In this document: positions 1,133 to 32,774 of the stretch, one piece after another
Layout of the letters: every line of letters begins with the position of its first letter
Position numbering within the stretch: position 1 is the stretch's first letter
DNA from: Candidatus Eiseniibacteriota bacterium
Lineage (GTDB): Bacteria > Eisenbacteria > RBG-16-71-46
Assembly: GCA_041483195.1 (NCBI GenBank)
Contig: JBGPFC010000002.1
Location: forward strand, 128,001-192,000
DNA length: 64,000 nt
Reading direction: 5' to 3'
Notes under the pieces: model-generated
Told to the model about the DNA's origin: nothing
Databases searched by the model: none
The model's input: the letters and a program-made list of their open reading frames with translations, nothing else
Program-made: the position numbers and the translations under genes

Positions 1133-1160
1133 TCAAGCCGCCGTGAGCCCGCGCCGATAG
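1133..1160 (+). promoter_or_regulatory. sigma28 (FliA)-type promoter upstream of mglA-like gene
   Basis: TCAAG-N15-GCCGATAG in intergenic DNA; consensus is TAAAG/TCAAG-N14-15-GCCGATAA. Confidence 0.65.
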
Positions 1161-4311: not shown

Positions 4312-6786
4312 TCACCTCGCAGCTTCGGCAGTCGCGCGATGCAACTTGAGTGCTTTTTGCGTGGCGGGTCCCGCTCCCCGCGCCGGCTCGGTGAGCTGGC
4401 GAAGCACCACCACCGTCAGGTCGTCGAGCGGACGATCGGCGAAGGCGCGCACGGCGGCGAGCAGCGCCTCGAGCACGTCCGCCGCCCGCCTCCCGGGGCA
4501 GGCGTCCAGCACCTCGCGAACCCGGTCGGTCCCGAACAACTCGTCACCGCACTGTGCCTCGGTGAGGCCATCGGTGCAGAGCAGCAGCAGATCTCCGGCT
4601 CCGAGTTCGACCGGCACGTCGGGATAGGTGGCGTCCACGCTCACTCCGAGCAGCACGCCACCATCCGTGAGTTCCTCGAAGCGGCCGTCGCGCCGGCGAA
4701 CCAGCGGCGGGGTGAGGCCCGCGTTCGCGAGCCAGACCCGCCCCCCCCGCACCTCGATGCGCGCGCAGAGGAGTCCCATGAACTTCTCGGGTTGATCGAG
4801 GCCGACCAGCTCGCGATTGAGAACGTCCAGCAGCGCGCCCGGACTCAGCGCGCGCCGCGCTTCGTCGCGGAAGCGCGCCTGCACGCCGGCGAGCACCAGC
4901 GCGGCGGGCACACCCTTCCCGGCCGCGTCACCCACGGCAAGCGTGAAATCGCGGGGCGCGGTCTCCACGAAGTCGTAGTAGTCGCCCCCCACCGACTCGC
5001 ATGAGAGCGTGGCCGCCGCGCAGTCGAGCGTCGGATAGACCGGTGCGCGACGGGGGAGGCGGTGCGCCTGAATGGCGCCGGCCTCGCGCAGCTCGCGCTC
5101 CAGCGCGCCGTGCGAACTGGCTTCGCGCCGCAGCGCGCGATTCTCGAGCGCCACCGCGAGATGGTCGGCGAACCGCTCGAGCTCGCGCGCCTCGAGCTGT
5201 CCGAGCCATGCGCCCGCCAGCCGCCGCCCCAGCAGCAGCAACGCGCGCCGCGGAGACTCGCCGACCGGCACGATCCATCGCACGCCGCCGCGCTCCAGGG
5301 CCATGGCGAGCTCCGCGCCCCCCTCGACCTCGTCGACTCCCACCACGCCGGCGCGATCACCCAGCGCGCGCGCCAGATCGGTTCCACCCGCGGGCAGCGT
5401 CGTTTCCCCGACGTGGCCGGCATCGCGCGCGATCCCGTGCTCGAGCGCCAGCGCCGCGCAACCGTCGAGCCGCAATTCCGCGGCCAGCGTCCCGCATGCC
5501 GTCGAGAGCAGGGGCTCGAGCCCGCCGGGGTGATCCGCACCGCTTCCCACGATCGAAATCACTCCGCTGCTCGCCGGCAACCGCGCACGCAATCCGCGGA
5601 CCCATGCGCTGAGCGGGCCCGCCAGCCCCGCGACCAGCGGAACACTCGCGAGCGCCAGGCCCTCGACCTCCGCGCCCAGTTCGGCGCCGCGGTGCAGGGC
5701 GATCCATTCCCCGCCGAGATACGCGAGCGCGCCCCCCGCGCCGAGCATCAACGCGAGCGAGCCGGCGCGCAGCGCCATCCGGAAATCGAAGATGTGATGA
5801 ACCACCACCGCCCACGCGAACGAAGCCGGCACCAGCAGCGTGAGCATGACCGCCCACCGTTCGCCGGGGACGGCCGTGCCCGGGGAGAGATTGCGGATCA
5901 GGATCAGGGCCGCGAGCGGGCCGGCGCCGAGCACGGTGCCGGCCAGCGCGACGCGCAGACGCCGGCGTTCGTCGGCCGACCGCGCTCGAAAGTAGGATCG
6001 CCCGAAGAGCGCGAGCGCGACGATGAGCCCCAGCGTGAACCACACCGCGGCCGCCACCTGAAGTGCCGCGAATGCCACGTCGGCGCCCGGAAAGGCGCTC
6101 GGTCCCAGCGGCTCGAGGAGCGCGGTCGCAAACAATACCGCAGCGATTCCATAGCCCCATCGAACGCGCGTCTCGAGTCGCCCGCCCCAGCGGGCCGGTT
6201 CTGGGAACATCGCGAAGAAATGGACGAAGAGCGCCGGCAGGAATAGCGTGATGCCCGAGTACGCGGTGCGCCACACGAGCGCGAAGGCCGCCGAACGCAG
6301 CTGGGGGAGCGGCGCGATCAGCCATGCAAACGCGAGGCAGAGCAGGAAGAAGGTGCGCGTGAGCCGGTCGCGCCGCTCGCTCCAAACCAGCCCCGCGAGC
6401 AGCACGAAGCCCGAGCTCACGACCAGCAGCGCCGCGAGCATGCGGCGCTCGGAATCGGGAAGCGGCTCGGCGGCGAGCCAGACCCGATCGCGACGATCCC
6501 CCGCGCGTCGTTCGAGGAGCAGGGGCCGGCCCGGCGCGGCGTCCGCGAGCAGCTCGCGCGCGAGCCACCCTGAATCGGTGGGGCGGCCGGTCGCCGCCAG
6601 GCGGTCGCCCGGCAGTATCCCGGCCCGATCCGCCGGACTTCCGGCGATCACGGCCGCGACACGATCCGACTGGACGATCAGCCCGGTATAAGGCCGGCCG
6701 GGCACGCCAAGGGCCGAGCACGCGAGCACCGAGGCCGCGGGCAAGAGCAGCCAGGCGATCATCCGGGCCGACCATCCGCGATGCAT
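4312..6786 (-). CDS. Membrane-bound SpoIIE/RsbU-type PP2C phosphatase (PDZ - multi-TM - GAF-like - PP2C)
   Basis: VIAGSPADRAGILPGD (PDZ); 7-8 TM helices; VGGDYYD, VGDAAGKGVPAAL, TDGLTEA, DDLT PP2C motifs. Confidence 0.9.
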   Translation of the reverse strand: MHRGWSARMIAWLLLPAASVLACSALGVPGRPYTGLIVQSDRVAAVIAGSPADRAGILPGDRLAATGRPTDSGWLARELLADAAPGRPLLLERRAGDRRDRVWLAAEPLPDSERRMLAALLVVSSGFVLLAGLVWSERRDRLTRTFFLLCLAFAWLIAPLPQLRSAAFALVWRTAYSGITLFLPALFVHFFAMFPEPARWGGRLETRVRWGYGIAAVLFATALLEPLGPSAFPGADVAFAALQVAAAVWFTLGLIVALALFGRSYFRARSADERRRLRVALAGTVLGAGPLAALILIRNLSPGTAVPGERWAVMLTLLVPASFAWAVVVHHIFDFRMALRAGSLALMLGAGGALAYLGGEWIALHRGAELGAEVEGLALASVPLVAGLAGPLSAWVRGLRARLPASSGVISIVGSGADHPGGLEPLLSTACGTLAAELRLDGCAALALEHGIARDAGHVGETTLPAGGTDLARALGDRAGVVGVDEVEGGAELAMALERGGVRWIVPVGESPRRALLLLGRRLAGAWLGQLEARELERFADHLAVALENRALRREASSHGALERELREAGAIQAHRLPRRAPVYPTLDCAAATLSCESVGGDYYDFVETAPRDFTLAVGDAAGKGVPAALVLAGVQARFRDEARRALSPGALLDVLNRELVGLDQPEKFMGLLCARIEVRGGRVWLANAGLTPPLVRRRDGRFEELTDGGVLLGVSVDATYPDVPVELGAGDLLLLCTDGLTEAQCGDELFGTDRVREVLDACPGRRAADVLEALLAAVRAFADRPLDDLTVVVLRQLTEPARGAGPATQKALKLHRATAEAAR
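4322..4349 (-). promoter_or_regulatory. Candidate sigma28-type promoter within the 3' end of the phosphatase gene, pointing at the 18-aa ORF
   Basis: TCAAG-N15-GCCGAAGC on the minus strand; lies in coding sequence, so a chance match is possible. Confidence 0.45.
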
Positions 6787-6815
6787 CCGTGCCTCCCGGG
6801 TCGAACGGCGGCCCG

Positions 6816-6843
6816 AGGCTAACAGGGCGGCCCCGGCTGTCAA
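6816..6843 (-). promoter_or_regulatory. sigma70-type promoter of the phosphatase gene
   Basis: TTGACA-N16-TAGCCT with extended -10 TG. Confidence 0.6.
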
Positions 6844-6858
6844 GATTCACTAGGGGCT

Positions 6859-6887
6859 TTGTAACCGGGCCGGGATGTGGCTATTCT
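6859..6887 (+). promoter_or_regulatory. sigma70-type promoter of csrA
   Basis: TTGTAA-N17-TATTCT. Confidence 0.55.
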
Positions 6888-6891
6888 CGCC

Positions 6892-6919
6892 TTAAGTGGT
6901 TCAAAGTTCTTGCCGATAC
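6892..6919 (+). promoter_or_regulatory. sigma28-type promoter of csrA and the flgM-like gene
   Basis: TTAAG-N15-GCCGATAC, 56 nt upstream of the csrA ATG. Confidence 0.65.
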
Positions 6920-6975
6920 GCTGACTGTCCGACGGGTGATTCTCGCCCCGGCACCGGAGCGGAGGAAGCTTCACG

Positions 6976-7230
6976 ATGCTGGTCCTAACAAGGAAGTTAG
7001 GAGAAAACATTCGGATTGGTGACTCGGTGAAGATCACCGTGCTCGAAGTGCGTTCCGGGCAGGTGAAACTCGGAATCGAGGCTCCACCCGAGGTGAAAGT
7101 GCACCGGGAAGAGATTTATGCCCGCATCCAGGAAGAGAATCGGCGCGCACAGCGAACCAAGGTCGGCGGCTCCGAGCCGGCGGCCGCGCCGCGCGACAGC
7201 GAAACGAAGGACCGGCCCGCGCCCGAATGA
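6976..7230 (+). CDS. csrA: Carbon storage regulator / translational regulator CsrA
   Basis: [16 protein letters not shown]...[29 protein letters not shown]. Confidence 0.97.
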
Positions 7231-7309
7231 GTCGGTCGCACGCGATCCGGGGCCGTCGCCGCCGGTGGCGGCGCGGCGAGCCGACAACGACCCCATTTCG
7301 CGAGCCAAC

Positions 7310-7510
7310 ATGAAGTCCATCCGTCCTCCATCTCGCAGTCGTCGTCCGCTGCCCCTGCCGGCGCGGCCGCCGTCGACGGTCTTCGCCGAGCCCATCCGCT
7401 GGCCGAACGTCATGACCGCGAGGGCTCGCATCGCGGTGCAGTTCTACGACCGTCCGGACGTGCGTGCCTCGGTCCTGGCAGCTGTGCTGGACGAGTTGAT
7501 GCGCGAGTAG
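7310..7510 (+). CDS. FlgM-like anti-sigma28 factor (66 aa)
   Basis: Disordered N-terminus, then IRWPNVMTARARIAVQFYDRPDVRASVLAAVLDEL, resembling the FlgM C-terminal R..KV...K..I..G.Y......IA..LL pattern; lies downstream of csrA in a fliA locus; start uncertain. Confidence 0.55.
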   Translation: MKSIRPPSRSRRPLPLPARPPSTVFAEPIRWPNVMTARARIAVQFYDRPDVRASVLAAVLDELMRE

Positions 7511-7542
7511 AATTCGGGTTCGGTGCTCGATGCCGGCCCGGG

Positions 7543-7580
7543 GCGGGGCGGTCGCGGTGTCCGCGGCCGCCCCGCTTGTT
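7543..7580 (+). terminator. Intrinsic terminator after the csrA-flgM-like pair
   Basis: 15-bp stem GCGGGGCGGTCGCGG-TGT-CCGCGGCCGCCCCGC followed by TTGTT. Confidence 0.7.
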
Positions 7581-7626
7581 ATACTGCGCGCTCCATGAGA
7601 GCCAAGTGTCGGTGAGGCGCGGTCGC

Positions 7627-8814
7627 GTGTCGGTGCTCTCCATCCCGATGGGACCGCTGAGTCGTGCGCTCATGGACGACTCGGACAGCGGCGTGGTGGT
7701 GCTCGATCCCGCGGCACGAGTCGCGAGCATCAATCCGGCCGCGCTGCGTCTGCTCGCCCTTCGTGCCTCGGACGCTCGCGGCCGCCCGCTGAGCGAGCTG
7801 CTCCGCACCGTCGTCGCGAACGACGATCTCGTAGGCGACGCGTTGCGCGCATCGCGCACCGAACGCGAGGCGGTGCTGCTCGCGCGGGATGGAAGCGAGG
7901 TCCCCGCGCTCGTCCGCAGCGTTCGGCTGGGCCGCCCGCCGTGGGTGCTGATCACGCTGCGCGATCTCACGCAGGTCCGGCGCATGCGGGAGGAGCTCCG
8001 CCGCCACGAGCGGCTCGCCACCCTGGGCCAGCTGAGCGCCGGCATCGCGCACGAGATTCGCAATCCGCTCGCGGGCATCGGCACCAGTGCGCAGGTCCTG
8101 TTGCGCCGATTCGAGCCCCGCGACGATCGGGCCAAGTTCGTGCGGGTGATTCTCGAGGAGGTCGCGAGGCTCGACCGGATCGTGACCAGCCTGCTCCAGT
8201 ACGCCCGCCCCCGGACCCCCGAGCTGCGTGCCGGCACGCTCGCGGCCTGCATCGAGCGCGTGCGGGTGCTCGCGAGCGAAACCATCGGCCAGACCGGGGT
8301 GCGGGTGGAAGTCGACGTGGCGCCCCGGCTCGGTCCGGTCTACATTGACTCAGACCTCGTCACGCAGGTGGTGCTGAACATCACGCTGAATGCCGTTCAG
8401 GCGATGCCCCAGGGTGGGACGCTCCGCTACGAGGTGCGCCGCGCGCGTCGTCGTCCGGCGCCGCGCGGGCCCGGACGACGCGCGTCGGACGCGGTGCGCC
8501 CGCCGGGGGGGGCGCGACGAGCCGTCGAGCGCGTGACCTTCCAGCAGGTGCGCGTGAGCGACACGGGGACCGGGATCCCGCGCGGCGTGCTGGCGAAGCT
8601 GTTCGATCCGTTCTTCTCGACCAAGCCCCGGGGCACCGGGCTGGGTCTCTCGATCTCGCAGACCATCATGCAGGAGCACGGTGGGACGATCGAAGTGGCG
8701 AGCCGCGAAGGGCGCGGCACCACCGTCCTGCTCAATTTCCCCGTGGAGAAGCGACATGGTGAAAGGCGACAGCTCGACGCACGTGCAGACCGCGCACACG
8801 CTACTCATCGTTGA
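7627..8814 (+). CDS. Cytoplasmic PAS sensor histidine kinase (NtrB/AtoS/FleS-like)
   Basis: PAS (GVVVLD....IN.AA..LL), AHEIRNPL H-box, NAVQAM N-box, DTGTGI, FDPFFSTK, GTGLGL; start could be 7627 or 7648. Confidence 0.92.
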   Translation: MSVLSIPMGPLSRALMDDSDSGVVVLDPAARVASINPAALRLLALRASDARGRPLSELLRTVVANDDLVGDALRASRTEREAVLLARDGSEVPALVRSVRLGRPPWVLITLRDLTQVRRMREELRRHERLATLGQLSAGIAHEIRNPLAGIGTSAQVLLRRFEPRDDRAKFVRVILEEVARLDRIVTSLLQYARPRTPELRAGTLAACIERVRVLASETIGQTGVRVEVDVAPRLGPVYIDSDLVTQVVLNITLNAVQAMPQGGTLRYEVRRARRRPAPRGPGRRASDAVRPPGGARRAVERVTFQQVRVSDTGTGIPRGVLAKLFDPFFSTKPRGTGLGLSISQTIMQEHGGTIEVASREGRGTTVLLNFPVEKRHGERRQLDARADRAHATHR

Positions 8815-10189
8815 CGACGAGCGTTCGCTGCGCTTCAGCATCGGGGAATGGGCGCGCGACGCGGGTTACCAGCCGGTCGAGGCCGCAGGGTGCCGCGAGG
8901 CGCTGGAACGCATGCGTGAGCAATCCGTCGATGTCGTGCTGCTCGACCTCAAGCTCGGGGACGAGGACGGCATGGAGGTGCTTCGTGATCTGCGCGCCGA
9001 GGATCCCTCGCTGCCGATCATCATGCTGACCGGGCACGGCACCATCGAGCACGCGGTGCGCGCGACGCGGCTCGGCGCATACGACTTCATGCTCAAGCCT
9101 CCCGATCTGGACCACCTGGGTGTGGTGGTGGCCCGCGCGCTCGAACACTCGCGGCTCCGCCGGGAGGTCGATCGCTTCCGCGCGACCTCTGGCCAGAATC
9201 AGCCCATGATCGGCGAGAGTCCGGGGCTCAAGCGCGTGCTCCAGCGACTCGAGAAGGCGGGCAAGAGCAGCAGCGCGACCGTCCTCATCCAGGGGGAGAC
9301 CGGGGTGGGGAAGGAGCTCATGGCGCAGTTTCTCCACGCTCACAGCCCGCGCGCCGGCGGGCCGTTCATCGAGCTCAATTGCAGCGCGATTCCCGAGCAG
9401 CTTCTCGAGAGCGAGCTCTACGGGCACGAGAAGGGCGCGTTCACCGACGCCAAGCGGTTCAAGAAGGGGCTGTTCGAACTGGCCGACGGCGGCACCCTGT
9501 TTCTCGACGAGATTGGTGAAATGGCGCCCGCGCTCCAATCGAAGCTGCTGCGAGTGCTCGAGAATCGCACCTTCCGCCGCGTGGGCGGACACGCCGACAT
9601 CACGGTCGACGTTCGGGTCGTGGCCGCGACGCACCGCGATCTCAAGCGCGCGGTCAGCGATGGAAAATTCCGGGAGGACCTCTACTTCCGGCTCAACGTC
9701 GTGCCGATCGAAATGCCTCCGTTGCGCGATCGGCAGGAGGACATCCGGGCGCTCGCGGAGCATTTCATCACGCGCTTCTGCCGCGAGCTGGGCCGCCCGG
9801 TCCTGCGACTCCACCCCGAAGCGCTCAGGGGTTTTCACGACTACGCGTGGCCTGGAAACGTTCGCGAGCTGAAGAACGTCATCGAGCGCGTGGTCCTGCT
9901 CGAGGCCGACGACGAGATCCGGCGCGAGCACCTGCCCTCCGAAATCCATCGCACGACCACGCGCGAGACCGCGGCGGGCGCGGCGGCGAGCCCGTTCCCC
10001 CCGGGGGTCGTTCGGCCGCTTGCCGAGATCGAGATGCTGGCGATCGATCACGCGCTGGTCGTGTGCGAGGGTAACAAGACCCGCGCGGCGCACCTGCTCG
10101 GCATCTCGCGCCAGACCCTGAGAACCAAGCTCAAGGAATTCGCCATCGAGGACGATGTTGAAGAGGGTGGCGAGGTGGGCCCCGAGTAG
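8756..10189 (+). CDS. sigma54-dependent response regulator (REC-AAA+-HTH Fis; NtrC/AtoC/FleR family)
   Basis: REC domain (LIVDD, LLDL), GETGVGKE, GAFTDA, LFLDEIGE, FREDLYFRL, WPGNVREL, GNKTRAAHLLGISRQTL. Confidence 0.96.
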   Translation: MVKGDSSTHVQTAHTLLIVDDERSLRFSIGEWARDAGYQPVEAAGCREALERMREQSVDVVLLDLKLGDEDGMEVLRDLRAEDPSLPIIMLTGHGTIEHAVRATRLGAYDFMLKPPDLDHLGVVVARALEHSRLRREVDRFRATSGQNQPMIGESPGLKRVLQRLEKAGKSSSATVLIQGETGVGKELMAQFLHAHSPRAGGPFIELNCSAIPEQLLESELYGHEKGAFTDAKRFKKGLFELADGGTLFLDEIGEMAPALQSKLLRVLENRTFRRVGGHADITVDVRVVAATHRDLKRAVSDGKFREDLYFRLNVVPIEMPPLRDRQEDIRALAEHFITRFCRELGRPVLRLHPEALRGFHDYAWPGNVRELKNVIERVVLLEADDEIRREHLPSEIHRTTTRETAAGAAASPFPPGVVRPLAEIEMLAIDHALVVCEGNKTRAAHLLGISRQTLRTKLKEFAIEDDVEEGGEVGPE

Positions 10190-10292
10190 TTCGCAGCGCC
10201 TCTCCCTGGTCCCGCGGCTCGCGCCGATCTTCCCCCGGCGCCGACCAGGAACCGTTCGTGCGTTCTAGGCGTGCGCAACGAGGTTAGGCGGG

Positions 10293-10313
10293 CGGAATGC
10301 ATTTCGGAATGCA
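10293..10313. promoter_or_regulatory. Candidate enhancer/activator binding site
   Basis: Palindrome TGCATT-TCGG-AATGCA (10298-10313) overlapping a direct repeat of CGGAATGCA, ~190 bp upstream of the sigma54 promoter. Confidence 0.4.
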
Positions 10314-10499
10314 GTCGGTTCGCGCGTTTCGCCAACTCCGGAGCTGATCCACCCGCCCGGCCGGGTTCGCGCGGTTTCTCGCGCGGCGCCACAAGTCGCT
10401 CTCCCTGAACGGTATGGCCCCGGCCTCACGGGCGCATCGCCGATCCGATCCCGGGCTCGGAATGAGCGCCGGCCGCGTCGTTCGCGCCCTGCCCGAGGC

Positions 10500-10515
10500 T
10501 GGCACGCAGACTGCA
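10500..10515 (+). promoter_or_regulatory. sigma54 (-24/-12) promoter of the RR-flhG-fliA operon
   Basis: TGGCACGCAGACTGCA: GG-N10-GC with TGGCACG consensus, 39 nt before ATG 10555. Confidence 0.75.
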
Positions 10516-10554
10516 ACCGGGTTTCCGCGCTGCCACCCACGGAGACCCCTTTCC

Positions 10555-10956
10555 ATGTCCCACATTCTCATCGTCGATGACGAACCCACCACCTCGTGGG
10601 CGCTCGCGGAAGGGCTGTCGGACGACGGCTTCAGCATCGACACCTTTCGCAGCGCCGAAGACGCGTGGGCCTGGCTCCAGGGTGGGCACAGCGACCTCGT
10701 CATCTCCGATCTCCGGCTGCCGGGCATGAGCGGACTCGAACTCGCTCGCAAGCTACGCCGCGGCCGCCACGCGCAACCGGTCATCATCGTGACGGCGTAC
10801 GGCACCCCGGAGACGATCCGCGACCTGCGCGGCGCGGGTGTCGCCGACTGCTTTACCAAGCCGTTCCCGATCGATCGGCTGCGTCGCTCGGTGCGCCTCG
10901 CGCTCGAGGCCGCCGCCCAGCGCGCCCGCCGGCGCCGCAAGGCCGCGGCGTGCTGA
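10555..10956 (+). CDS. Single-domain response regulator (REC)
   Basis: ILIVDDE, VISDLRLPGMSGLEL, IIVTAYG, KPF. Confidence 0.92.
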   Translation: MSHILIVDDEPTTSWALAEGLSDDGFSIDTFRSAEDAWAWLQGGHSDLVISDLRLPGMSGLELARKLRRGRHAQPVIIVTAYGTPETIRDLRGAGVADCFTKPFPIDRLRRSVRLALEAAAQRARRRRKAAAC

Positions 10957-11291
10957 GCCGCCCCGCCTCGCAACGCGCGCGCGGCCTCAGGCGCGCCCCC
11001 GCGCCGGTGCGCCAGCTCGCGGCGCTCCATTCCGGCCGGGCGCGGATTCGCGCCGCGCTCGAACATTGCGCGGAGCAGGAACGCGCGGTGCTGGCCCTCA
11101 TGTTGTTCGAGCGCCTCACGCCGGCGGAAGCCGCGCAGGCGCTGGGGATGCCGATCACGGATCTGCTGCGCACCTACGACGCGCTGCTCCGCGAGCTGCG
11201 GCGCGCGCTGCGCGGGCTGAGATTCCGATCGAGGCTCACGCAGGACGGCCGCACCCGCACCGCGTCCGAAGCGCGCGTGAGGGAAGCCTGA
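10950..11291 (+). CDS. Stand-alone sigma70 region-4-like HTH protein, paralogous to the FliA C-terminus
   Basis: ALEHCAEQERAVLALMLFERLTPAEAAQALGM aligns without gaps to FliA TLDQLPEQERLVVALYYYEHLTLKEIGRALGI; start overlaps the upstream stop. Confidence 0.75.
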   Translation: MLSRPASQRARGLRRAPAPVRQLAALHSGRARIRAALEHCAEQERAVLALMLFERLTPAEAAQALGMPITDLLRTYDALLRELRRALRGLRFRSRLTQDGRTRTASEARVREA

Positions 11292-11563
11292 TGCCGATCC
11301 GGCGGCCTCTGACCCCGAGCGCCGATCCGGCGGGTGAGATCCCGGCGACGTCGGGGGCGCGACTCGATCGCATCGACGCCGCGCTCGTTTCTCTGGGCGC
11401 GGAGCAGCATCGCCTCGAGCGCATCGGCCTCGAAATCCCACTCGCGCGCTGTCATACCCAGAAGCGCTACTGGATGTTCCTGAGGGCGTTGTTCTCGATC
11501 CCGGATGCGAAGCGCTCCACCCCGTGCGGAGGATCACCGTGGCCGAGCGCGACGATTCGCTGA
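11291..11563 (+). CDS. Hypothetical small helical protein (90 aa)
   Basis: TGATG translational coupling; helical core RLDRIDAALVSLGAEQHRLERIGLEIPLARCHTQKRYWMFLRALF. Confidence 0.6.
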   Translation: MPIRRPLTPSADPAGEIPATSGARLDRIDAALVSLGAEQHRLERIGLEIPLARCHTQKRYWMFLRALFSIPDAKRSTPCGGSPWPSATIR

Positions 11564-12462
11564 AGCCTTCGAGCCGGGCCGGCGCAAGGCGTCAGCGGCC
11601 GCCGCTGGCCGTGGTCCCCGGGACCGGCCAGCCGGCGGAGTCCGAGGACCATCCCGCGCGGTGGAGCCGCCCGCACGTGCCGATGATCGTCATCGCGAGC
11701 GGGAAGGGCGGGGTGGGCAAGAGCAACCTCTCCGCGAATCTCGCGGTCGCGCTCGGTGAGCGCGGCGCCCGCGTGCTGCTGGTGGACGCCGATTTCTCCC
11801 AGGCCAGCCTCGATCTGCTGCTCGGCCTTCATCCGCGTCACGACCTGCAGCACGTGCTGGCTGGCGAGAAGACCCTCGAGGATATCGTCGTCGAGGGGCC
11901 GTTTGGGGTGAAACTGGTTCCCGCGGCATCCGGGGCGCCCGAACTCGTCGATCTCGACGACGTGCGCCTCGAGTCCCTGCTGCGCGGCCTGTCCCAGCTC
12001 GAGGCCGACATCGACCTCGTGCTCCTCGATACCGCGTCGGGGGTCGGGCGCCAGGTGACTTCGCTCTGCCTGGCGGCCGACGAGGTCGTGGTCGTGACCA
12101 CTCCCGAGATGCCCGCCTTCGCGGATGCGTATGGCCTCATCAAGCTCCTCCAGCACCAGGGGCTCGCGCGTCCGGTGCACCTGCTCGTGAACATGGCGGG
12201 AAGCCCGGAGGAGGCGGAAGAGACCGCGCACCGCATTCGGCTCGTGGCCCGACGCTTCCTGCGCATGCAGCTCGACGTCTGGGAGCCGGTGCCGTTCGAT
12301 CTCGCCATTCCCCGCGCCGTGCGCCGCCAGGAACCCGTGCTGACCGCGTACCCGCAGTCCCCGGCGGCGGCGGCCTATCGGGCGCTTGCCGAGCGTCTCT
12401 GGACCACGCCACCGCCGACGCCGACGATCGAGATTTCACATCCGCAGCGTTTGGAAGCCTGA
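11539..12462 (+). CDS. flhG: FlhG/FleN-type MinD/ParA ATPase
   Basis: ASGKGGVGKSN deviant Walker A, LVDAD, DTASG, VVTTPE..AFADAYGLIK; GGAGG RBS; immediately upstream of fliA. Confidence 0.88.
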   Translation: MAERDDSLKPSSRAGARRQRPPLAVVPGTGQPAESEDHPARWSRPHVPMIVIASGKGGVGKSNLSANLAVALGERGARVLLVDADFSQASLDLLLGLHPRHDLQHVLAGEKTLEDIVVEGPFGVKLVPAASGAPELVDLDDVRLESLLRGLSQLEADIDLVLLDTASGVGRQVTSLCLAADEVVVVTTPEMPAFADAYGLIKLLQHQGLARPVHLLVNMAGSPEEAEETAHRIRLVARRFLRMQLDVWEPVPFDLAIPRAVRRQEPVLTAYPQSPAAAAYRALAERLWTTPPPTPTIEISHPQRLEA

Positions 12463-12477
12463 GAGGAGGAAGTCCCC

Positions 12478-13302
12478 ATGCCCCGTGCCGCCACCGCGTC
12501 CCCTGCACGTCCGTCCGTTTCCCTTCGCCTGGTGCCTCGCCGCGCCGCACCCGCGACAGCGCCGGGCCTCACCCCCGTGACCTACTCGAAGGACGATCTC
12601 CTCAAGCGGTTCGCGCCGCTGGTGCGTCACGTCGTCGAGCGGGTGGCCGCGACGCTGCCGCGCAACGTCGATCATGAGGATCTCTACTCGGCGGGGGTGC
12701 TCGGCCTGCTCGATGCCCACGCCAAGTTCGACACCCGCAAGGGCGTGAAGTTCGAGACCTACGCGGTGTGGCGGATCAAGGGCGCAGTCCTCGATCAGCT
12801 GCGCGCGCTCGACTGGGTGTCGCGCTCGATGCGACGCAAGGCTCGCAATCTCGACGGCATCACACGCAAGCTCGACCAGAAGCTGGGACGCGCGGCGTCC
12901 GAGGACGAGGTCGCGCGCGAGATGAAGATGACGCGTGGCGAATTCTATCGGTTGCTCGATCACGTTCGGGGAGCGGTGCTGGTCTCGCTCGACGAGAGCC
13001 GTTCGGGCGAGGAGCAGGAACCCACCACGCTCGCCGACCATCTGCCCGATCCCAACGCCGCCGACGTCGAGGCCCGGCTCGAGGAAGAGCAGACGCATCA
13101 CGTGATGCTCAAGACCCTCGATCAGCTTCCCGAGCAGGAGCGGCTGGTGGTGGCGCTCTACTACTACGAGCACCTCACGCTCAAGGAAATCGGCAGAGCC
13201 CTGGGCATCTCGGAATCGCGCGTCTCCCAGGTTCACACGCGCGCCATGATGCGGCTGCGTCTCCGGCTGCAGAAGGCCCTGGCGCAGGAGCGGGCGGCGT
13301 GA
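12478..13302 (+). CDS. fliA: RNA polymerase sigma factor, FliA/WhiG (sigma28) family
   Basis: LPRNVDHEDLYSAGVLGL, KFETYAVWRIKGAVLDQLRALDWVSRS, ALYYYEHLTLKEIG..LGISESRVSQVH. Confidence 0.96.
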   Translation: MPRAATASPARPSVSLRLVPRRAAPATAPGLTPVTYSKDDLLKRFAPLVRHVVERVAATLPRNVDHEDLYSAGVLGLLDAHAKFDTRKGVKFETYAVWRIKGAVLDQLRALDWVSRSMRRKARNLDGITRKLDQKLGRAASEDEVAREMKMTRGEFYRLLDHVRGAVLVSLDESRSGEEQEPTTLADHLPDPNAADVEARLEEEQTHHVMLKTLDQLPEQERLVVALYYYEHLTLKEIGRALGISESRVSQVHTRAMMRLRLRLQKALAQERAA

Positions 13303-13700
13303 CGCAGCCGGAGACCGCGGAGCCGCTGCTGCCGCCGCCGCCCCACGAGGCGATGATCGAGCGCATGCTCGAGCACGCGCACGCGATCGAGGCGGCGGGC
13401 AAGCCCGAGCACGCGGCCGCCCTCAGGTCTTCACTCGAGGGCTGGCGGCGGGCGCAGCAGGATTGGATTGAGCGCCTCGCGCGGGCGCTCGCGGTCCACC
13501 ACGAGATCAACAACGCGCTGGTCGGCGTGCGGGGCAACGCACAGCTGCTGCTGATGGGTCCGGCGGGCAAACAGCCGGGCGTGAGAGAGCGTCTGGAGGT
13601 CGTGATCCGTGAATCCAAGCGCATCCAGGAAGCCGCCGGGAGAATTCGCGAGATCAAGGCCGCGATCGGCGGCGCGGACCCGGCCTCCCGTGCCGCCTGA
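13299..13700 (+). CDS. HisKA (DHp)-only protein, putative phosphotransferase or kinase modulator
   Basis: HHEINNALVGVRGNAQLLL H-box helix and a second helix; no HATPase domain; GTGA overlap with the fliA stop. Confidence 0.8.
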   Translation: MTQPETAEPLLPPPPHEAMIERMLEHAHAIEAAGKPEHAAALRSSLEGWRRAQQDWIERLARALAVHHEINNALVGVRGNAQLLLMGPAGKQPGVRERLEVVIRESKRIQEAAGRIREIKAAIGGADPASRAA

Positions 13701-14670
13701 CGCCGGCCGGGCCTCCGGGCCCGACGCCACGAGCCGCCGGGCGGATGGCGCGACCGCGGTCTCGGGAACGCCGGGCGGCGAAGCGATCGCGCGTCGCCGC
13801 GCCTCGCGTTCGCTGTGGGCGGCATGCGAGGCGCTGCTCACGGCCGCGTCCGAGCCGCGTGCTGTGAATCGTGCGCTCGACGCGCTGCGCGTCGCGTTCG
13901 AGTGTGACGGCGTCGCGATCCACGCGCTGGGGCCGGAGGGCGCGATGGAGCCGCTGTGCGCGCGCGGAGAATGGCGTGTCGCTCCCGGCGACCTGCGCGA
14001 CTGCGTGAGCGTGCCGCTGATGCGCGGCGCGGAACGGGTCGGCGCCCTCGAGCTGCTCGCGCGGCCGGGCCAGCACTGGCGCCCGGCGCAAATCGGCCTG
14101 GTGCGAACCGCATCCGGCGCGCTGGGTGCCGCGCTCGGCGTTCGTCTCGAGCTCCAGCGCCTGCGCCACCAGCCGGGTCGTGACGGCGTCACCGGGCTGC
14201 CCGACGCGCGAGCTTTTCACGCGCGGCTTCACGAGGAACTCGCTCGCGCGCGCCGCCATGGATTGCCGCTCGCGGTCGTCATGGTCGACATCGATCGTTT
14301 TGCCGCACTCAATTCGCGCTACGGGCGCGCCGTCGGCGATGCGGTGCTCGCCGAGACGGCGCTGCTGCTGCGGCTGACCTTGCGCGAGACCGACGTGCTC
14401 GCGCGCCTCGGGGGCGATCGCTTCGGAATCGTGCTCCCGGAGTGCGACGTACCGGCCGCGGCACGCTGCGCCGAGCGGGTACGGCGCATCGTGGAGGAGC
14501 ACGAATTCGCCCGCGTCGGCCGCGTCAGCGCCTCGGCGGGCGTGGCGGTCAGTCCCCGGGACGGGATGGAACTGGTCGAGATCATGAATCGCCTCGACCA
14601 CGCGATCGCGATCGCCAAGAAGTCGGGACGCAGGCGGGTCGCCGTGGCCGGACAGACGCACACCCACTGA
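13690..14670 (+). CDS. GAF-like + degenerate GGDEF protein (GGDRF), intact RxxD I-site
   Basis: RDGVTGLPD, DIDRFAALNSRYGRAVGDAVL, RETD-VLARL-GGDRF. Confidence 0.88.
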   Translation: MPPDAGRASGPDATSRRADGATAVSGTPGGEAIARRRASRSLWAACEALLTAASEPRAVNRALDALRVAFECDGVAIHALGPEGAMEPLCARGEWRVAPGDLRDCVSVPLMRGAERVGALELLARPGQHWRPAQIGLVRTASGALGAALGVRLELQRLRHQPGRDGVTGLPDARAFHARLHEELARARRHGLPLAVVMVDIDRFAALNSRYGRAVGDAVLAETALLLRLTLRETDVLARLGGDRFGIVLPECDVPAAARCAERVRRIVEEHEFARVGRVSASAGVAVSPRDGMELVEIMNRLDHAIAIAKKSGRRRVAVAGQTHTH

Positions 14671-14687
14671 GAGCGGCGGAGGCCGGA

Positions 14688-16619
14688 ATGAGACCGAAGC
14701 CGCACGCGCCGGCCCACGAGCCCGGAGCCTCGGGCACGAGGGCCGCGCCGTCGCCGCCCGCGATCGTCTCGCGCAGCGGGCTCGCGGCCGCCTCGAACCC
14801 GGCTGACGTGTCGGAAGCACCCGTGGGTCTCGCCCGGGCCGGATCGGTGGGGGTCGCCGGCGACGCTCCGGCGCTCGCGTTCGGAAGCGGGGCGGATGCG
14901 CCCGGTACCCTGCCCGAGACGGAAATCGAAACGCGGGCGCGCGTGCTGGTGGTGGACGATGAGCCATCGGTCGTCGACGTGCTTCGCGAATTTCTCTCGG
15001 GTGAGGGTTACGAAGTCTCCGTGGCCTCGAGCGGGGAAGAGGCGCTCCGGCTGATTCCGGAGCTGCGGCCGGACATCATCCTGACCGACATCAATCTGCC
15101 TGGACTGTCGGGACTCGAGGTCATGCGCTTCGCGAAGAGCGTCGATCCCGAGGTCGCGGTGATCGTGGTGACCGGCTACGCGTCCGCTTCCACCGCCATC
15201 GATGCGCTCCGTCAAGGCGCGTACGACTACGTCACCAAGCCATTCGATCTCGACGACGTCCATCAAATCGTCGAGCGCGGCGTCGCGAACCGGCGCCTGA
15301 AGGCCATCAATCGCCGCCTGGTCGAGGAGCTGAGGCAGAAGAACGCGATCCTCCAGCGCCACGAACAGGAGCTGCGCGAACGCGTTCGGCTCGCGACCTG
15401 GCAGATGACCACCCTCTACGAGGTCGGCAAGGAAGTCGGCGCCAACCTCGAGCTCGCCCCGCGTCTCGCCCTCATCTGTTCCAAGGCCGCGGAATTGTCC
15501 GGCGCGCCGTCGGCGCTCGTCTACTTGAGAAATACCGAGACCGAGCGCCTTCACGTGGACGCGGCCCACGGGGTCGAGATCACGGACAGCGAGGATACCC
15601 TTCCGCACTATCTGCAGGCCGAGAGCGCGCTCGGCATCAGCGCTTCGGATCCGCGCCCGGCCCGTCGCGCGGTCGGCGACGGGGAGCCGGCGATGGAGTT
15701 GCCGTCTCTGGCCGGCCACCCGGTGCGCAACATGCTGGCGGTGCCGATGATCGCCGAGTCGCAGACCCTGGGCGTGCTGGTCCTGATGAACAAGCCGGGC
15801 GGATTCAGCGACGACGACGAGAGTTTCCTCGCCCAGTACGCCTCACAGGTCGCGATCGCCGTGCACAACTCGCAGTTGTTCGAACACACGAAGAGCCTCG
15901 ACCGCCTCAAGTCCGAATTCGTGGCGGTGGTGTCCCACGAGATCCGCACCCCCCTGACCTCGGTCAAGGGCGCCGTGGAATTGCTCGCGGACGATCGGTA
16001 CTTTCCCAACACCGAGCAGCAGACGAAGCTCCTCACCATCGCGCACGCGAATGCGGAGCGGCTGCTGGTGCTCATCAACGACATCCTGGATTTCTCGAAG
16101 CTCGAATCGGCGTCGCTGCCGATGAGCATCCAGCGCCAGCGCATCGAGCCGGTCGTCCATCAGGCGGCGCACAACCTGCGCACCATGATGGAGGAGCGCC
16201 GCATTCATCTCGAGGTGCTGCTCTCGCCCGAGATGCCCGATCTCATGCTCGACGCGAATCGAGTCGCGCAGGTCCTGACCAATCTGCTCTCGAACGCCAC
16301 CAAGTTTTCCCAGTCCGGCGGGCGCATCGAGATCACCGCGGAGCCCTGGGAGGGCGTCGTGCGGGTCGGCGTGCGCGATCACGGCGAGGGCATCGCGCCT
16401 CAGGATCTTCCGAAGCTGTTCCGCAAGTTCTCGCAGGTGGACTCTTCGGCGACGCGCAAGGCGGGTGGGACGGGACTCGGCCTGGTCATCTGCAAGGGCA
16501 TCGTCGAGCAGCACGGCGGAAAGATCTGGGTGGAGAGCACCCCGGGGCAGGGCAGCACGTTCTACTTCACGCTGCCGCTCGCCGAGCGACTCGCCGCCCC
16601 CGCGATCCCGCAGGCCTGA
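14688..16619 (+). CDS. Hybrid histidine kinase (REC - coiled coil - GAF - HisKA - HATPase)
   Basis: VLVVDDE, LTDINLPG, SHEIRTPLT, NLLSNATKF, DHGEGI, GTGLGL; GGAGG RBS. Confidence 0.93.
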   Translation: MRPKPHAPAHEPGASGTRAAPSPPAIVSRSGLAAASNPADVSEAPVGLARAGSVGVAGDAPALAFGSGADAPGTLPETEIETRARVLVVDDEPSVVDVLREFLSGEGYEVSVASSGEEALRLIPELRPDIILTDINLPGLSGLEVMRFAKSVDPEVAVIVVTGYASASTAIDALRQGAYDYVTKPFDLDDVHQIVERGVANRRLKAINRRLVEELRQKNAILQRHEQELRERVRLATWQMTTLYEVGKEVGANLELAPRLALICSKAAELSGAPSALVYLRNTETERLHVDAAHGVEITDSEDTLPHYLQAESALGISASDPRPARRAVGDGEPAMELPSLAGHPVRNMLAVPMIAESQTLGVLVLMNKPGGFSDDDESFLAQYASQVAIAVHNSQLFEHTKSLDRLKSEFVAVVSHEIRTPLTSVKGAVELLADDRYFPNTEQQTKLLTIAHANAERLLVLINDILDFSKLESASLPMSIQRQRIEPVVHQAAHNLRTMMEERRIHLEVLLSPEMPDLMLDANRVAQVLTNLLSNATKFSQSGGRIEITAEPWEGVVRVGVRDHGEGIAPQDLPKLFRKFSQVDSSATRKAGGTGLGLVICKGIVEQHGGKIWVESTPGQGSTFYFTLPLAERLAAPAIPQA

Positions 16620-16735: not shown

Positions 16736-18517
16736 ATGAGCGCCACGGACGACGCTTCTCGTTCATTGCCTGCCGGGCCCGCCGCGCCCCGTCGCACCGC
16801 GGCGACCGCGATCGCGCTCGCCGCGATCGTCGCCGGCGCGGCGCTGGCGCTGGCATTCGGCCCTCGCGTCACCCCGATCCGGCTTCTGAGTCACGAAGCG
16901 AGCGCCGCGTGGCGCGGTCCCGCCCCGGATCCCGAATCGTGGGCGCCCGGCGCACCGCCGGGCGTGACGGTGAAGCTGGTGGAACATGGGGGCCGTAGCG
17001 ATCTCGTCGTACGCGCTCCCGATCCCGGGACCGCCGTCTCGCTCGCCCGCACGCTGGTCTCCGAGCGCGCCAGCGGCCGGGCCGAATGGTCGCGCCGGCG
17101 CTCCGCGCTGCGCGTCGCGTGGCGCGAACGGATCCCGATCGGCCCGCTGCCGGTCCCTTCCGCGCGCGGCGATTGCGCGGCCCTCCTGCGAGGCTGGGCC
17201 GAGGCCTGGCGTGGAGTCGCGGGCGACGATCCCACTCGCTTCGCGCCCGCGACCGAGCCCGCGCGCGGCGAGGCGTTGCGACTGGACGAGGCCGATGCGG
17301 CGCGCGAAGCGGTCGCGGGCGATCCGGCCGCGCTCGAGCGGGCCCTGGTGCGCTCGGCGGACCTCGATCGCGAGCAGCTGCGGGACGCGGTCCGAGGCTG
17401 GGATGCTGGCGCCTTCGACGAGATCGTGGCGAGGTGGAGAAACGCGAACCGCCGCCGAGCCGAGGATCTCGAATCCATCGCGGTCGCGATCGAAAGCGAC
17501 CTCGATGAAGCTTCGATCGAGAACGTTCGCTTCGCCGTCCCCGGCCACGCGCTCGATGCCGAGCGCAGAATTTCCGATCCGTCGACACTGCTGCAGGCCA
17601 TCGCGCAGGTTCCGGCCACGATTCGCACCCGGCCCCGGTTCGAAGCGTGGCTCGCACTCGCCGCGGTCGGAGCGCTGCTCGGATTTCTCCTCGCCTGGCC
17701 GCTGGTATGGCGGCTCTCCCGGCACCACGAACCGCCCGCGCGCCAACCCGCCGCGCCGCGCTCACCCGCGCAAACCGATACCTGGCTGCACATCCTCAGC
17801 GGCCCGTCCACCCGTCGCACGGGCCAGGCGGCGCTCGTCCTGTCGAGCGGCTTCCTCGAGCGGGGCAAGTCGGTCCTGATCATCGACGGTGCTCCTCGCT
17901 CGCCGCTCCATCGCTGCTTCGATTGCGAGAACCGGCTGGGGCTCGACGAGTGTCTGGCGGGACGGATGCCCCTGCTCGGCGTGCTCCAGAGCAGCGGCGT
18001 TCCGGGGCTCTTCTTCCTGTCGCACGGTGGGGGCGTGCGGGCCACGCACTGGACCCAGCTTGATCGACTGCTCGAGGAGGCCCGGCCACACTTTGGCCAC
18101 GTCATCCTCTCGCTCGATCCTTCCTGTCCCCGCGAGATCGGCAGCACGCTCGCGGGCCGGGTCATGGACGGCTGGTGGACGGGCGGCCCGGGGCCCCGGG
18201 GCGGCGCCGCATCGAGGGTCGAAGCGCGGATCGGGATCGCGTTGAGCGACATCGAGTTGCCGCAGCCCGAGGAGACTTCGCTGGAAGCGCTCCGAGCGCG
18301 GTTCGTGGCGACCACTCCGCTCGGGCCCTCATCCGAGATCCCCTCGGAGCCCGGCCCCGAGATCCTCGCCCCGCGGGACGGGCCTCCGGTGCACAGCGCG
18401 CCCGTGGTGCTGGACTGCGACTTGCAGGTTCGTGAGCGGCTCCGGTTCCTGGTCTGGATGCGACGCGTCCAGGCCGAAGGCCGGGGCGGGATCCTCGAGC
18501 CGCTCGTGCGCGGCTGA
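16736..18517 (+). CDS. Divergent polysaccharide co-polymerase/BY-kinase-like protein with degenerate P-loop domain
   Basis: Two TM helices flanking a helical periplasmic region, then GKSVLIIDG...LHRCF..ENRLGLDECLAG...GVPGLFFLSHG (CapB/Wzc-like); Walker A GKS/T absent (SGPSTRRTGQ). Confidence 0.6.
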   Translation: MSATDDASRSLPAGPAAPRRTAATAIALAAIVAGAALALAFGPRVTPIRLLSHEASAAWRGPAPDPESWAPGAPPGVTVKLVEHGGRSDLVVRAPDPGTAVSLARTLVSERASGRAEWSRRRSALRVAWRERIPIGPLPVPSARGDCAALLRGWAEAWRGVAGDDPTRFAPATEPARGEALRLDEADAAREAVAGDPAALERALVRSADLDREQLRDAVRGWDAGAFDEIVARWRNANRRRAEDLESIAVAIESDLDEASIENVRFAVPGHALDAERRISDPSTLLQAIAQVPATIRTRPRFEAWLALAAVGALLGFLLAWPLVWRLSRHHEPPARQPAAPRSPAQTDTWLHILSGPSTRRTGQAALVLSSGFLERGKSVLIIDGAPRSPLHRCFDCENRLGLDECLAGRMPLLGVLQSSGVPGLFFLSHGGGVRATHWTQLDRLLEEARPHFGHVILSLDPSCPREIGSTLAGRVMDGWWTGGPGPRGGAASRVEARIGIALSDIELPQPEETSLEALRARFVATTPLGPSSEIPSEPGPEILAPRDGPPVHSAPVVLDCDLQVRERLRFLVWMRRVQAEGRGGILEPLVRG

Positions 18518-32392: not shown

Positions 32393-32510
32393 GCATCCTT
32401 CCCATGTGCCGTGGGTGGGCACGGTTGGAGATCGCCCGGCGGTGTGCACGAAGCGCTTCGAGGGCGGCCGCGCGGCCCACCCCGGCTCAGAGCACGAGGA
32501 TCCGCACCCG

Positions 32511-32537
32511 TTATCGGCGTCCGACCTCGCCGCCTGA
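32511..32537 (-). promoter_or_regulatory. sigma28-type promoter of the oxidoreductase-wecB-GT39 operon
   Basis: TCAGG-N14-GCCGATAA (perfect -10) in intergenic DNA, ~120 nt before the ATG. Confidence 0.65.
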
Positions 32538-32774
32538 AGCGCGGGGCCGCGTCATCCGGCGAGCGCGCGAGTCGTGGATCGCAAGCCCCATCGCTGCGGC
32601 GGCAGCTTACGGGCGAGGGGCCGTCCCCGCAAGCGATGGATGCGCCCGCCCCGAGTGTTGCCGCTCCGCGAATCGCTGCCCTATGCTGCGCGACCGAGCG
32701 TCGCCCGGCGTCCGCCGGCGGATCGTGCGGCGGGACCCACGGGTGAAGCGCAGACGGGGCGAGGAGGAGCCGGA

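Follow-up and report, generated by a model that had tools for sequence, protein, structure and literature searches.

Sigma28 is the textbook flagellar sigma factor, and the route by which it passes from dedicated to general regulator has been worked out in few lineages. The textbook sigma54-to-sigma28 flagellar hierarchies comprise the FlgS/FlgR or FleS/FleR pair, FlhF-FlhG and FliA-FlgM; the Bacillus fla/che operon ends with sigD, and CsrA is paired with FliW. Here, we describe a block of genes at positions 6859-16619 of a 64-kb stretch of DNA (the window) from a metagenome-assembled genome (MAG) of a Candidatus Eisenbacteria bacterium. The Eisenbacteria are, to our knowledge, abundant in soil and have no cultured member. 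The block is probably the regulatory shell that a flagellar super-operon left behind when the flagellum was lost, and that now functions as a sigma54-to-sigma28 cascade, a global switch of lifestyle and cell surface; we put the probability of this reading at nearly four in five.

Like the flagellar hierarchies, the locus has a two-component sigma54 tier above sigma28, flgM and csrA under predicted sigma28 control and, in a flagellated sister family, the gene order flhA-flhF-flhG-fliA. Unlike them, the window genome lacks a structural tier, FlhF, FliW and an export gate for FlgM, and it has kept a different kinase-activator pair from that found directly ahead of flgB in the sister family.

A comparable situation has been described for Legionella, where non-flagellated members (an L. 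longbeachae subclade, L. oakridgensis and others) keep fliA, flgM, fleN and fleR/fleS, and FliA has non-flagellar targets that include a GGDEF/EAL protein (PMC5655016). In the Eisenbacteria block, too, structure genes are absent, yet sigma28 is kept together with its putative anti-sigma, an FlhG/FleN-type ATPase and a two-component pair of the sigma54-dependent kind. Unlike Legionella, the Eisenbacteria are an uncultured phylum-level group, with 41 of 41 sampled genomes concerned, and the genes form one contiguous syntenic block that has a flagellated counterpart in a sister family. The Eisenbacteria block also adds a protein resembling sigma region 4 (sigma4-like), a conserved 90-residue protein (hyp90), a DHp-only protein and a degenerate GGDEF protein, with some 50 predicted promoters.

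In the Actinomycetota, sigma28 has split into a flagellum-linked WhiG1 and a repurposed WhiG2, the predicted regulons of the latter being rich in cyclic di-GMP (c-di-GMP) enzymes, regulators and type IV pili, and its promoter consensus, T(A/C)AA-N16-GCCGATAA, being the same as that of the window genome (PMC12871210). Reminiscent of the WhiG1/WhiG2 split, flagellated members of the window's family carry two FliA paralogs. Unlike WhiG2/RsiG (the system of Streptomyces WhiG), the putative Eisenbacteria anti-sigma is FlgM-type (no search aimed at RsiG was made), any c-di-GMP link would run through the I-site of the degenerate GGDEF protein, and the sigma54 tier and the FlhG-like ATPase are kept. 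The phenomenon as such is known from Legionella and the Actinomycetota; what is new here is the deletion footprint, a putative FlgM without an export route and a possible sigma region-4 decoy. Literature searches at listing level found nothing on this block for Eisenbacteria with flagella or sigma factors, and only general papers for FlgM with sigma factor mimicry.

Comparisons drew on the window genome (4.17 Mb in 93 contigs, 96.84% complete) and on a sample of 41 relatives from genus to class level, one of which is unpublished (G026) and was counted only in the 41-genome tallies. The sample covers the window's family (f1), a sister family with a flagellar super-operon (f2), a further family (f3) and class-level outgroup genomes. 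Protein families were called by Pfam and NCBIfam profile searches. Direct computation covered gene content, the lack of flagellar genes, synteny and orthology, as well as the excess of promoters and their conservation.

The block consists of thirteen tightly packed genes, all on the plus strand, between 6976 and 16619, with adjacent genes overlapping or separated by short gaps. The G+C content of the window is about 70%, and gene models were therefore picked by third-position G+C and start-site context. The block opens with csrA (6976-7230; Pfam CsrA 91.2 bits against a cut-off of 27, NCBIfam equivalog 97.3 bits), some 57 nucleotides (nt) ahead of whose AUG stands a sigma28-type promoter, TTAAG-N16-GCCGATA (6892-6918, plus strand), taken as that of csrA-flgM. 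The next open reading frame (ORF), sORF66 (7310-7510, 66 aa), is a putative short FlgM-type anti-sigma28, so named on similarity to FlgM at the level of its family, with no family match for the window copy. A PAS-HisKA-HATPase histidine kinase (7576-8814, start uncertain; Pfam) and an NtrC-type sigma54 activator (8801-10189, start taken at 8801; Sigma54_activat 234.9 bits) complete this part. The activator has the REC, sigma54-interaction AAA+ and HTH (HTH_8) domains of its class, RpoN with all three of its domains is encoded in the genome, and a promoter of the GG-N10-GC form follows downstream, namely the -24/-12 element TGGCACgcagaCTGCA (TGGCAC-N5-CTGCA; 10499-10514, plus strand), about 40 nt before the start codon of the next gene.

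Behind the sigma54 promoter lie eight genes, beginning with a single-domain response regulator (REC; 10555-10956, Response_reg 92.9 bits), the sigma4-like gene (10950-11291, start possibly 11007), which encodes a stand-alone sigma28-type region-4 protein by profile and fold matches, and hyp90 (11291-11563), a conserved two-helix hairpin of 90 aa with a 46-member family and an AlphaFold2 (AF2) model at a predicted local distance difference test (pLDDT) of 85.1. These are followed by a FlhG/FleN-like MinD-type ATPase (11611-12462, start possibly 11683; ParA, CbiA and AAA_31 matches) and by fliA itself (12478-13302), which scores 248.2 bits against a cut-off of 189.6 for TIGR02479 and exceeds the cut-offs of Sigma70_r2, r3 and r4, placing it in the FliA/WhiG sigma28 family. 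The last three genes encode the DHp-only protein, with HisKA (28.6 bits), a conserved H-box and no ATPase domain (13353-13700), the degenerate GGDEF protein, which reads GGDRF and has an intact RxxD I-site (13690-14670; GGDEF 125.8 bits), and a REC-GAF-HisKA-HATPase hybrid kinase (14688-16619; Pfam). An Rfam scan of the whole window returned no match, and between 6700 and 17000 no sigma70 consensus promoter and only one terminator-like site (minus strand, below the shuffled mean) were predicted, with no terminator inside the block.

An earlier, sequence-only reading of the window had listed csrA, a FlgM-like ORF, a PAS kinase, a sigma54 activator, the promoter and the eight genes downstream, all of which were recovered at or near where it had placed them; it had also remarked on the lack of flagellar genes in the 64 kb. 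That absence extends to the whole 4.17-Mb assembly by five Pfam families, FliW and tblastn. For instance, FHIPEP, Flagellin_N, Flg_bbr_C, YscJ_FliF and FliG_C have no match in the whole assembly, each control having matched 4 of 14 named genomes, and FliW has none either. In tblastn searches of the genome at an E-value of 0.001, the FlgC, FliE, FliF, FliG, FlgE, FlbD, MotA, FliL, FliM, FliO, FliP, FliQ, FliR, FlhB and FlhA of a flagellated relative gave no match, and thus not even flagellar relics were found for these fifteen proteins. The FlhF, FliI-like, MotB and FlgD queries match only generic domains elsewhere in the genome; in the case of FlhF, the partner of FlhG, the f2 protein finds its best match in an SRP-type GTPase encoded on a different contig, at 31% identity. 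No methyl-accepting chemotaxis protein (MCP) scores above cut-off in the genome, the single match reaching 23.6 bits against 34.6. Despite the lack of an above-cut-off MCP and of a flagellum, a CheR-like methyltransferase is present (G000:C52:15296-15856), with 28.6% identity to f2 CheR.

The likely origin of the block is apparent from family f2, where the best match to the window FliA (55-56% identity) lies 2-3 kb from flhA. One complete f2 contig was annotated (45 ORFs). It starts with flaG and, farther on, HDOD, GAF-SpoIIE and HEAT genes, followed by HK1, NtrC1, REC, CheR and REC, then by a 106-aa sigma region-4 protein and a second pair, PAS-HK2 and NtrC2. The middle of the locus runs through flgC, fliE, fliF, fliG and, after further genes, flgD, flgE, flbD, motA, motB, fliL and fliM, and on to fliO, fliP, fliQ, fliR, flhB, flhA and flhF. 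The end consists of flhG, a 78-aa ORF, fliA, two more genes, GAF-GGDEF and REC-GAF-HK. Some 22 kb of structural genes therefore sit in the middle of outer genes that are the same as those of the window. When f2 HK1, NtrC1 and the first REC are compared with the window genome, they match best the window kinase, activator and receiver (44, 46 and 49% identity, respectively), which are not the best matches of the pair preceding flgB; the MinD/ParA-type ATPase directly upstream of fliA is the ortholog of the gene after flhF in f2, flhG (54-56% identity); and the hybrid kinase has its ortholog after the GGDEF gene in f2 too. From this order and these best matches, the window locus therefore equals the f2 locus without CheR-REC and without the segment that starts at PAS-HK2 and ends with flhF, but with hyp90 and the DHp-only gene added.

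Thus, the ancestral locus may have read HK-NtrC-REC-(CheR-REC)-sigma4-like-[FlgS/FlgR-like pair-flgB...flhA-flhF]-flhG-fliA-...-GGDEF-REC-GAF-kinase, and the window's family would have lost the bracketed part, from the FlgS/FlgR-like pair to flhF, and kept the remainder as one block. We infer the deletion of the structural genes from the canonical f2 gene order and from parsimony.

The FliA phylogeny is consistent with this origin. In a quick maximum-likelihood IQ-TREE of 128 rows, for which outgroups were drawn from a 50%-clustered protein library (106 of 150 representatives kept, 235-300 residues in length), the copies from f1, f2, f3 and the class-level genomes make up a single clade with a Shimodaira-Hasegawa-like approximate likelihood-ratio test (SH-aLRT) support of 99, such that the window FliA groups with the FliA that closes the f2 flagellar super-operon. 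Flagellated f1 genomes have the block and, at another site, a flagellar cluster that contains a further flhG and fliA (36-43% identity to the block pair), a second pair that adjoins flhA (L096 and L098, in G022 and G004). The second FliAs form a long-branched pair outside the Eisenbacteria clade, and so the f1 flagellar cluster may have been gained horizontally. In the single-contig flagellated relative G022, flhA is spread over three frames (G022:C1:1690443-1692397; profile positions 1-301, 321-386 and 381-655), the result either of a broken gene or of indel errors in a long-read assembly.

The block is conserved across dozens of Eisenbacteria genomes. All 41 sampled genomes have a FliA ortholog with an intact frame (69-90% identical within f1, 50-65% beyond), and about 100 columns are invariant across 34 orthologs. 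Among 88 loci searched by tblastn, most of those long enough to contain the 13 genes have them all in the same order and on the same strand. Loci of the f3 type mostly lack matches for the sigma4-like and hyp90 genes, and two class-level loci keep the kinase, activator, REC, FliA, (GGDEF) and hybrid kinase, with no FlhG match. Conservation extends to the promoters, as 32 of 49 syntenic loci have the sigma54 promoter at the corresponding position and 38 of 49 the csrA sigma28 promoter, with its -35 and -10 elements fixed and its spacer sequence free.

For sigma28 promoters genome-wide, the E. coli-type pattern, TAAA-N14-16-GCCGATAA, was tried and has no occurrence in the window genome; the working motif has TCAA and one extra spacer base. 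The pattern T[AC]AA-N17-CCGA[AT]A is found 27 times in the window genome versus 1-6 times at eleven other spacings, and TCAA-N17-CCGA[AT]A 26 times versus 1-4 at eight other spacings. The consensus is cTCAAG-N16-GCCGATAAc, and computationally the genome has promoters of the T(A/C)AA-N15/16-GCCGATAA form of FliA/WhiG sigma28. With a position weight matrix (PWM), 43 sites score 18 bits or more, a figure that includes the 27 seed sites by construction, versus 2-9 at shifted spacings, and there are some 50 sites overall. Of the 81 sites listed, 61 are at most 300 nt upstream of a same-strand gene, even though called genes take up 93% of the genome.

The excess is a general feature of these bacteria. 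It is found in all 25 f1 genomes (11-30 sites, where the backward pattern gives 0-2 and the N19 spacing 0-6), and also in f2 (14-21 sites) and f3 (5-18), in flagellated and non-flagellated genomes alike. Individual promoters are conserved as well: a site of at least 14 bits stands ahead of 19 of 24 orthologs of an ATPase target and 8 of 12 of an HD-GYP target (in-gene controls, 0/24 and 0/12), the strict pattern being kept in 9 of 24 and 6 of 12. Flagellin genes of flagellated relatives, those of f2 included, carry sigma28-like promoters. Whether a spacer of N16 or N17 before CCGA separates the two FliA paralogs was considered; the N16 counts (8, 3, 9, 6, 9 and 2 in flagellated f1 genomes versus 0-8 in others) are only suggestive, and no claim is made.

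Since flagellated sister genomes show the same promoter excess, the wide regulon seems older than the loss of the flagellum. This brings forward the strongest competing explanation, that nothing was repurposed after the loss: sigma28 would already have been a broad regulator, the loss would have removed one of its outputs, and the block would never have been rewired. Such an account overlaps with the one preferred here and differs from it only in timing, and we regard it as a serious contender, if the less probable of the two. It is favoured by the counts in flagellated f2 genomes with a single FliA (21, 14 and 15 sites versus 2, 2 and 0 in the control), and by the fact that f2 already has the sigma4-like gene and FlgM, and has GGDEF and REC-GAF-HK genes after fliA. 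Several changes within the block, however, argue for rewiring. Hyp90 and the DHp-only gene have no counterpart in the f2 loci examined. The N-terminal motif DQAxxLR is the part of FlhG that activates FlhF; it is found in 0 of 59 block FlhG orthologs, having been lost there, and in 2 of 2 flagellar FlhG paralogs of f1. The GGDEF protein reads GGEEF in f2 and is mostly degenerate in f1, with a canonical motif in 9 of 68 orthologs, the window copy lacking the GG(D/E)EF active-site motif of a diguanylate cyclase; 56 of the 68 have RxxD where the I-site lies. FlgM, finally, has shrunk from about 106 aa in f2 to about 66 aa in the window's family and moved beside csrA.

These comparisons also bear on what the sequence-only reading had proposed. 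Its view of a control layer kept and stripped of structure genes is supported by synteny, because f2 has the same outer genes around some 22 kb of structural genes. Its further suggestion, that the layer was rewired with new small modules, holds for hyp90 and the DHp-only gene, which look added, but not for the sigma4-like gene and FlgM, which flagellated f2 genomes already possess. The idea of a developmental switch stays a suggestion, the predicted targets pointing to signalling, c-di-GMP, the envelope and pilus/secretion ATPases.

Targets were annotated as the first gene, and the next gene where present, behind the 48 best sites, giving 76 proteins. The predicted regulon is non-flagellar, in that none of the 76 belongs to a flagellar family and control of late flagellar genes was not found among them. 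Among the 76 are five histidine kinases of the hybrid or GAF kind, two of which have Hpt partners, together with HD-GYP proteins, a GAF-SpoIIE phosphatase, one FHA and two HEAT proteins, and a GAF protein ahead of a subtilase. LptC with LptB, a PBP5-type carboxypeptidase, a PMT_2-TPR glycosyltransferase and an acyltransferase also occur, as do PhoH with a 7TMR-HD protein and the glyoxylate-shunt pair. For 14 of the 48 first-gene targets no family was found. In one case (L151, G000:C41:4220-7513), a sigma28-type promoter is followed by an LptC-like gene, about 770 nt and then rpoN, which encodes sigma54, so that feedback from sigma28 to the sigma54 tier is possible. Ahead of the malate synthase-isocitrate lyase pair (L138, G000:C13:21851-26067), the sigma28-like site has a spacer one base longer and scores 23.4 bits.

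The targets also include a PilT-like ATPase, a PilB/MshE-type ATPase that carries an MshEN domain and two AAA proteins of the ExeA-like type, of which one has a SPOR domain. They raise the possibility of a dedicated regulator, whereby the block would run a type IV pilus or type II secretion-like machine as replacement motility and would not be a global switch. FlhG-type ATPases position polar machines, and the ATPase promoter, kept in 19 of 24 orthologs, is the best kept among those tested. Nevertheless, a dedicated regulator seems unlikely: these proteins account for 4 of the 48 first-gene targets, most others being kinases, c-di-GMP enzymes, envelope or metabolic proteins or, for 14, of no family, and no pilin or secretin gene is among the 76 proteins scanned.

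An artefact of assembly would require that the organism is flagellated and that its flagellar loci lie in the unassembled 3% or were binned out. The source is a MAG in 93 contigs at 96.84% completeness, and flagellar genes cluster, so that one lost contig could conceal many of them. Across the relatives, however, FlhA is found in 9 of 41 genomes (6/24 in f1, 3/3 in f2, 0/10 in f3, 0/3 at class level and 0/3 in the same genus), such that three same-genus genomes of 80-93% completeness and 18 of 24 f1 genomes also have no FlhA, including assemblies of one, nine and ten contigs (G016, G015 and G017, respectively). In addition, the flagellar genes of f2 sit inside this very block, which is contiguous and without them in the window, and no flagellin, rod, FliF, FliG, FliW or MotA gene was found anywhere in the genome. 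An artefact is thus very improbable, and no flagellar gene set carrying the sigma28 promoters was found. Least credible is a decaying relic, in which the regulators left by a recently lost flagellum are unused and being lost: flagellar genes in 6 of 24 f1 members would allow a loss that is recent in places, and the degenerate GGDEF active site and the FlhG without DQAxxLR would fit decay, but this account is already contradicted by a FliA frame intact in 41 of 41 genomes up to class level with its invariant columns, by thirteen syntenic genes and footprinted promoters, and by a promoter excess in every f1 genome (11-30 versus 0-2 in the control).

For a working sigma54-to-sigma28 cascade, we infer the phosphorylation paths, the extents of the operons, the feedback loops and the means by which FlgM is relieved. 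The PAS kinase would phosphorylate the NtrC-type activator, which would drive the sigma54 promoter at 10499-10514 and hence an eight-gene operon of REC, sigma4-like, hyp90, flhG-like, fliA, DHp-only, degenerate GGDEF and hybrid kinase genes. FliA would read T(C/A)AA-N16-GCCGATAA promoters at about 50 genome sites, among them that of csrA-flgM, the transcript of which probably continues into the kinase and activator genes, and that ahead of the LptC-like gene and rpoN. The short FlgM would bind region 4 of FliA and hold it inactive. Such an arrangement would provide positive feedback through the activator, and perhaps sigma54, and negative feedback through FlgM and CsrA. With regard to CsrA, a FliW-type partner switch cannot apply because FliW is absent. 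A 2026 CsrA survey predicts that few Eisenbacteria CsrAs repress a Bacillus hag reporter (PMC13443453), which agrees with CsrA acting on other targets.

The assignment of sORF66 as a FlgM rests on its family of 44 sequences, which share a conserved C-terminal motif. Pfam FlgM is matched weakly by 18 of the 44 (best E-value 0.0023) and any other family by 1 of 44, and a search of the family profile against the PDB gave chance-level matches only. The profile finds proteins of 106-107 aa beside flaG in two f2 genomes (E-values 2e-11 and 3e-14), and these pass the FlgM cut-off (26.6 and 28.8 bits versus 25). In five members of the window's family, Pfam FlgM gave a single sub-threshold match, beside the flagellins of G004. 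A model of the FliA-sORF66 complex scores 0.76 (runs 0.76, 0.71 and 0.76) versus 0.01 for the best of three controls, passing a mark that 116 of 157 solved complexes attain, as do 2 of 215 mismatched pairs. The pLDDT of the partner is 63 or higher, and 47% or more of contacts are shared between runs. The modelled interface joins FliA 207-264, in region 4, to sORF66 27-66. Because a sigma28-FlgM complex has already been solved, such a pass indicates likeness and is not proof of binding. For release of FlgM through a flagellar export gate, no FlhA, FlhB or FliPQR is found in the genome.

The sigma4-like protein is a candidate for an alternative means of relief. Its single sequence gives a weak score (E-value 0.002), and the family profile matches region 4 of WhiG, FliA and SigF in the PDB at E-values of about 1e-8 (9e-9 for the sigma28 type) and the sigma-like domains of PhyR at 2e-4 to 5e-4. 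The AF2 model (pLDDT 78.6) has fold matches only to sigma region 4. Relative to FliA region 4, 21 of 58 residues are identical overall; at the residues that contact sORF66 in the model, 12 of 22 are identical and 17 of 22 similar, and the recognition helix is unrelated. This pattern suggests that the modelled protein is a candidate decoy for the anti-sigma. A likeness to PhyR-NepR-EcfG lies in a receiver next to a sigma-like domain that resembles the cognate sigma. Unlike PhyR, which is a single polypeptide, the receiver (10555-10956) and the sigma-like part (10950-11291) are encoded by two genes that overlap, the sigma-like part consists of region 4 alone, the cognate sigma belongs to group 3 (sigma28) and not to the ECF type, and the system is known here from sequence and models.

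A fuller version of this idea, which we consider possible but doubtful, is a decoy switch in which the stand-alone sigma28 region 4 would titrate FlgM under the control of phosphorylation (through REC, the DHp-only protein and the hybrid kinase) and perhaps of c-di-GMP (through the I-site of the GGDEF protein), a split form of PhyR-like mimicry. Combined with expression of the NtrC-type activator, and perhaps of rpoN, from sigma28 promoters, it would give a bistable sigma54/sigma28 lifestyle switch across the whole candidate phylum. The GGDRF protein fits the part of a candidate c-di-GMP receptor, to judge from its sequence. In the case of the DHp-only protein, the family alignment shows an invariant H50 and I52-G58 in the H-box, with no match of the sequence profile in the PDB. 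Hyp90 resembled only generic helical hairpins when compared with the PDB by Foldseek, all of them above an E-value of 0.001, and the ESM Atlas gave only unnamed clusters with low recognition.

Several points weigh against the view that a flagellar shell was turned into a global cascade. The evidence is computational throughout. The genome is a MAG of 93 contigs, and a gene called absent is one that was not found in an assembly 96.8% complete. Whether f1 and f3 lost the genes or f2 gained them by insertion is judged from parsimony and the canonical flhA-flhF-flhG-fliA order, and the three class-level outgroup genomes also have no FlhA. The FliA tree is a quick search with SH-aLRT support only. 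The PWM was trained on the 27 seeds that it recovers, the independent evidence being the excess over shifted spacers and the conservation across genomes. The strict csrA promoter pattern is missing in 11 of 49 loci and the sigma54 pattern in 17 of 49, and the palindrome-like TGCA-N8-TGCA, about 190 nt upstream of the sigma54 promoter and tried as an activator-binding site, is conserved in 0 of 32 loci. The window's own sORF66 has no Pfam FlgM match, and the pass of the modelled complex may mirror the solved sigma28-FlgM complex and not binding by the window copy.

The surroundings of the block include further features. Divergent from csrA is a SpoIIE/PP2C-type phosphatase (4312-6843, minus strand; Pfam SpoIIE 132.6 bits), a conserved neighbour that is syntenic at 34-65% identity in most loci reaching it. 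SpoIIE-type phosphatases and HEAT proteins occur alongside the module in both flagellated (L105:2091-3524 and L105:4032-6362) and non-flagellated (window 4312-6843) genomes. A PP2C-type partner switch acting on the circuit is conceivable, and further SpoIIE and HEAT copies are predicted sigma28 targets. Directly 3' of the block, an ORF on the plus strand (16736-18517, 593 aa) has no Pfam family, and its C-terminal half is 31-48% identical in many syntenic loci. Elsewhere in the window, a sigma28-type promoter, TCAAG-N16-GCCGATA (1133-1159, plus strand; PWM 22.4 bits), stands ahead of a plus-strand ORF of 475 aa with no Pfam family (1272-2699), with trpA farther downstream. A weaker sigma28-like site with a spacer one base shorter (32510-32539, minus strand; 18.4 bits) precedes an amine oxidase (31088-32449) and a UDP-GlcNAc 2-epimerase.

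For the Eisenbacteria, the cascade described here represents a first regulatory hypothesis. It offers a before-and-after view within one order: in f2, the block frames a flagellar super-operon, and in f1 the frame is intact, the structural genes are gone and dozens of promoters are conserved. It also raises the question of how a FlgM-type anti-sigma is relieved without secretion. If the decoy were true, it would be a split, PhyR-like partner switch by sigma mimicry for a group-3 sigma, replacing the secretion of FlgM. In the wider protein collection, at least 6039 proteins among 8000 candidates scored are FliA homologs at an E-value of 1e-20 or below, the best 120 of them, at 76-100% identity, coming mostly from short metagenome contigs. 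Many of them carry the database name 'sigma factor for flagellar operon FliA', which would be a misleading sign of motility in these organisms.

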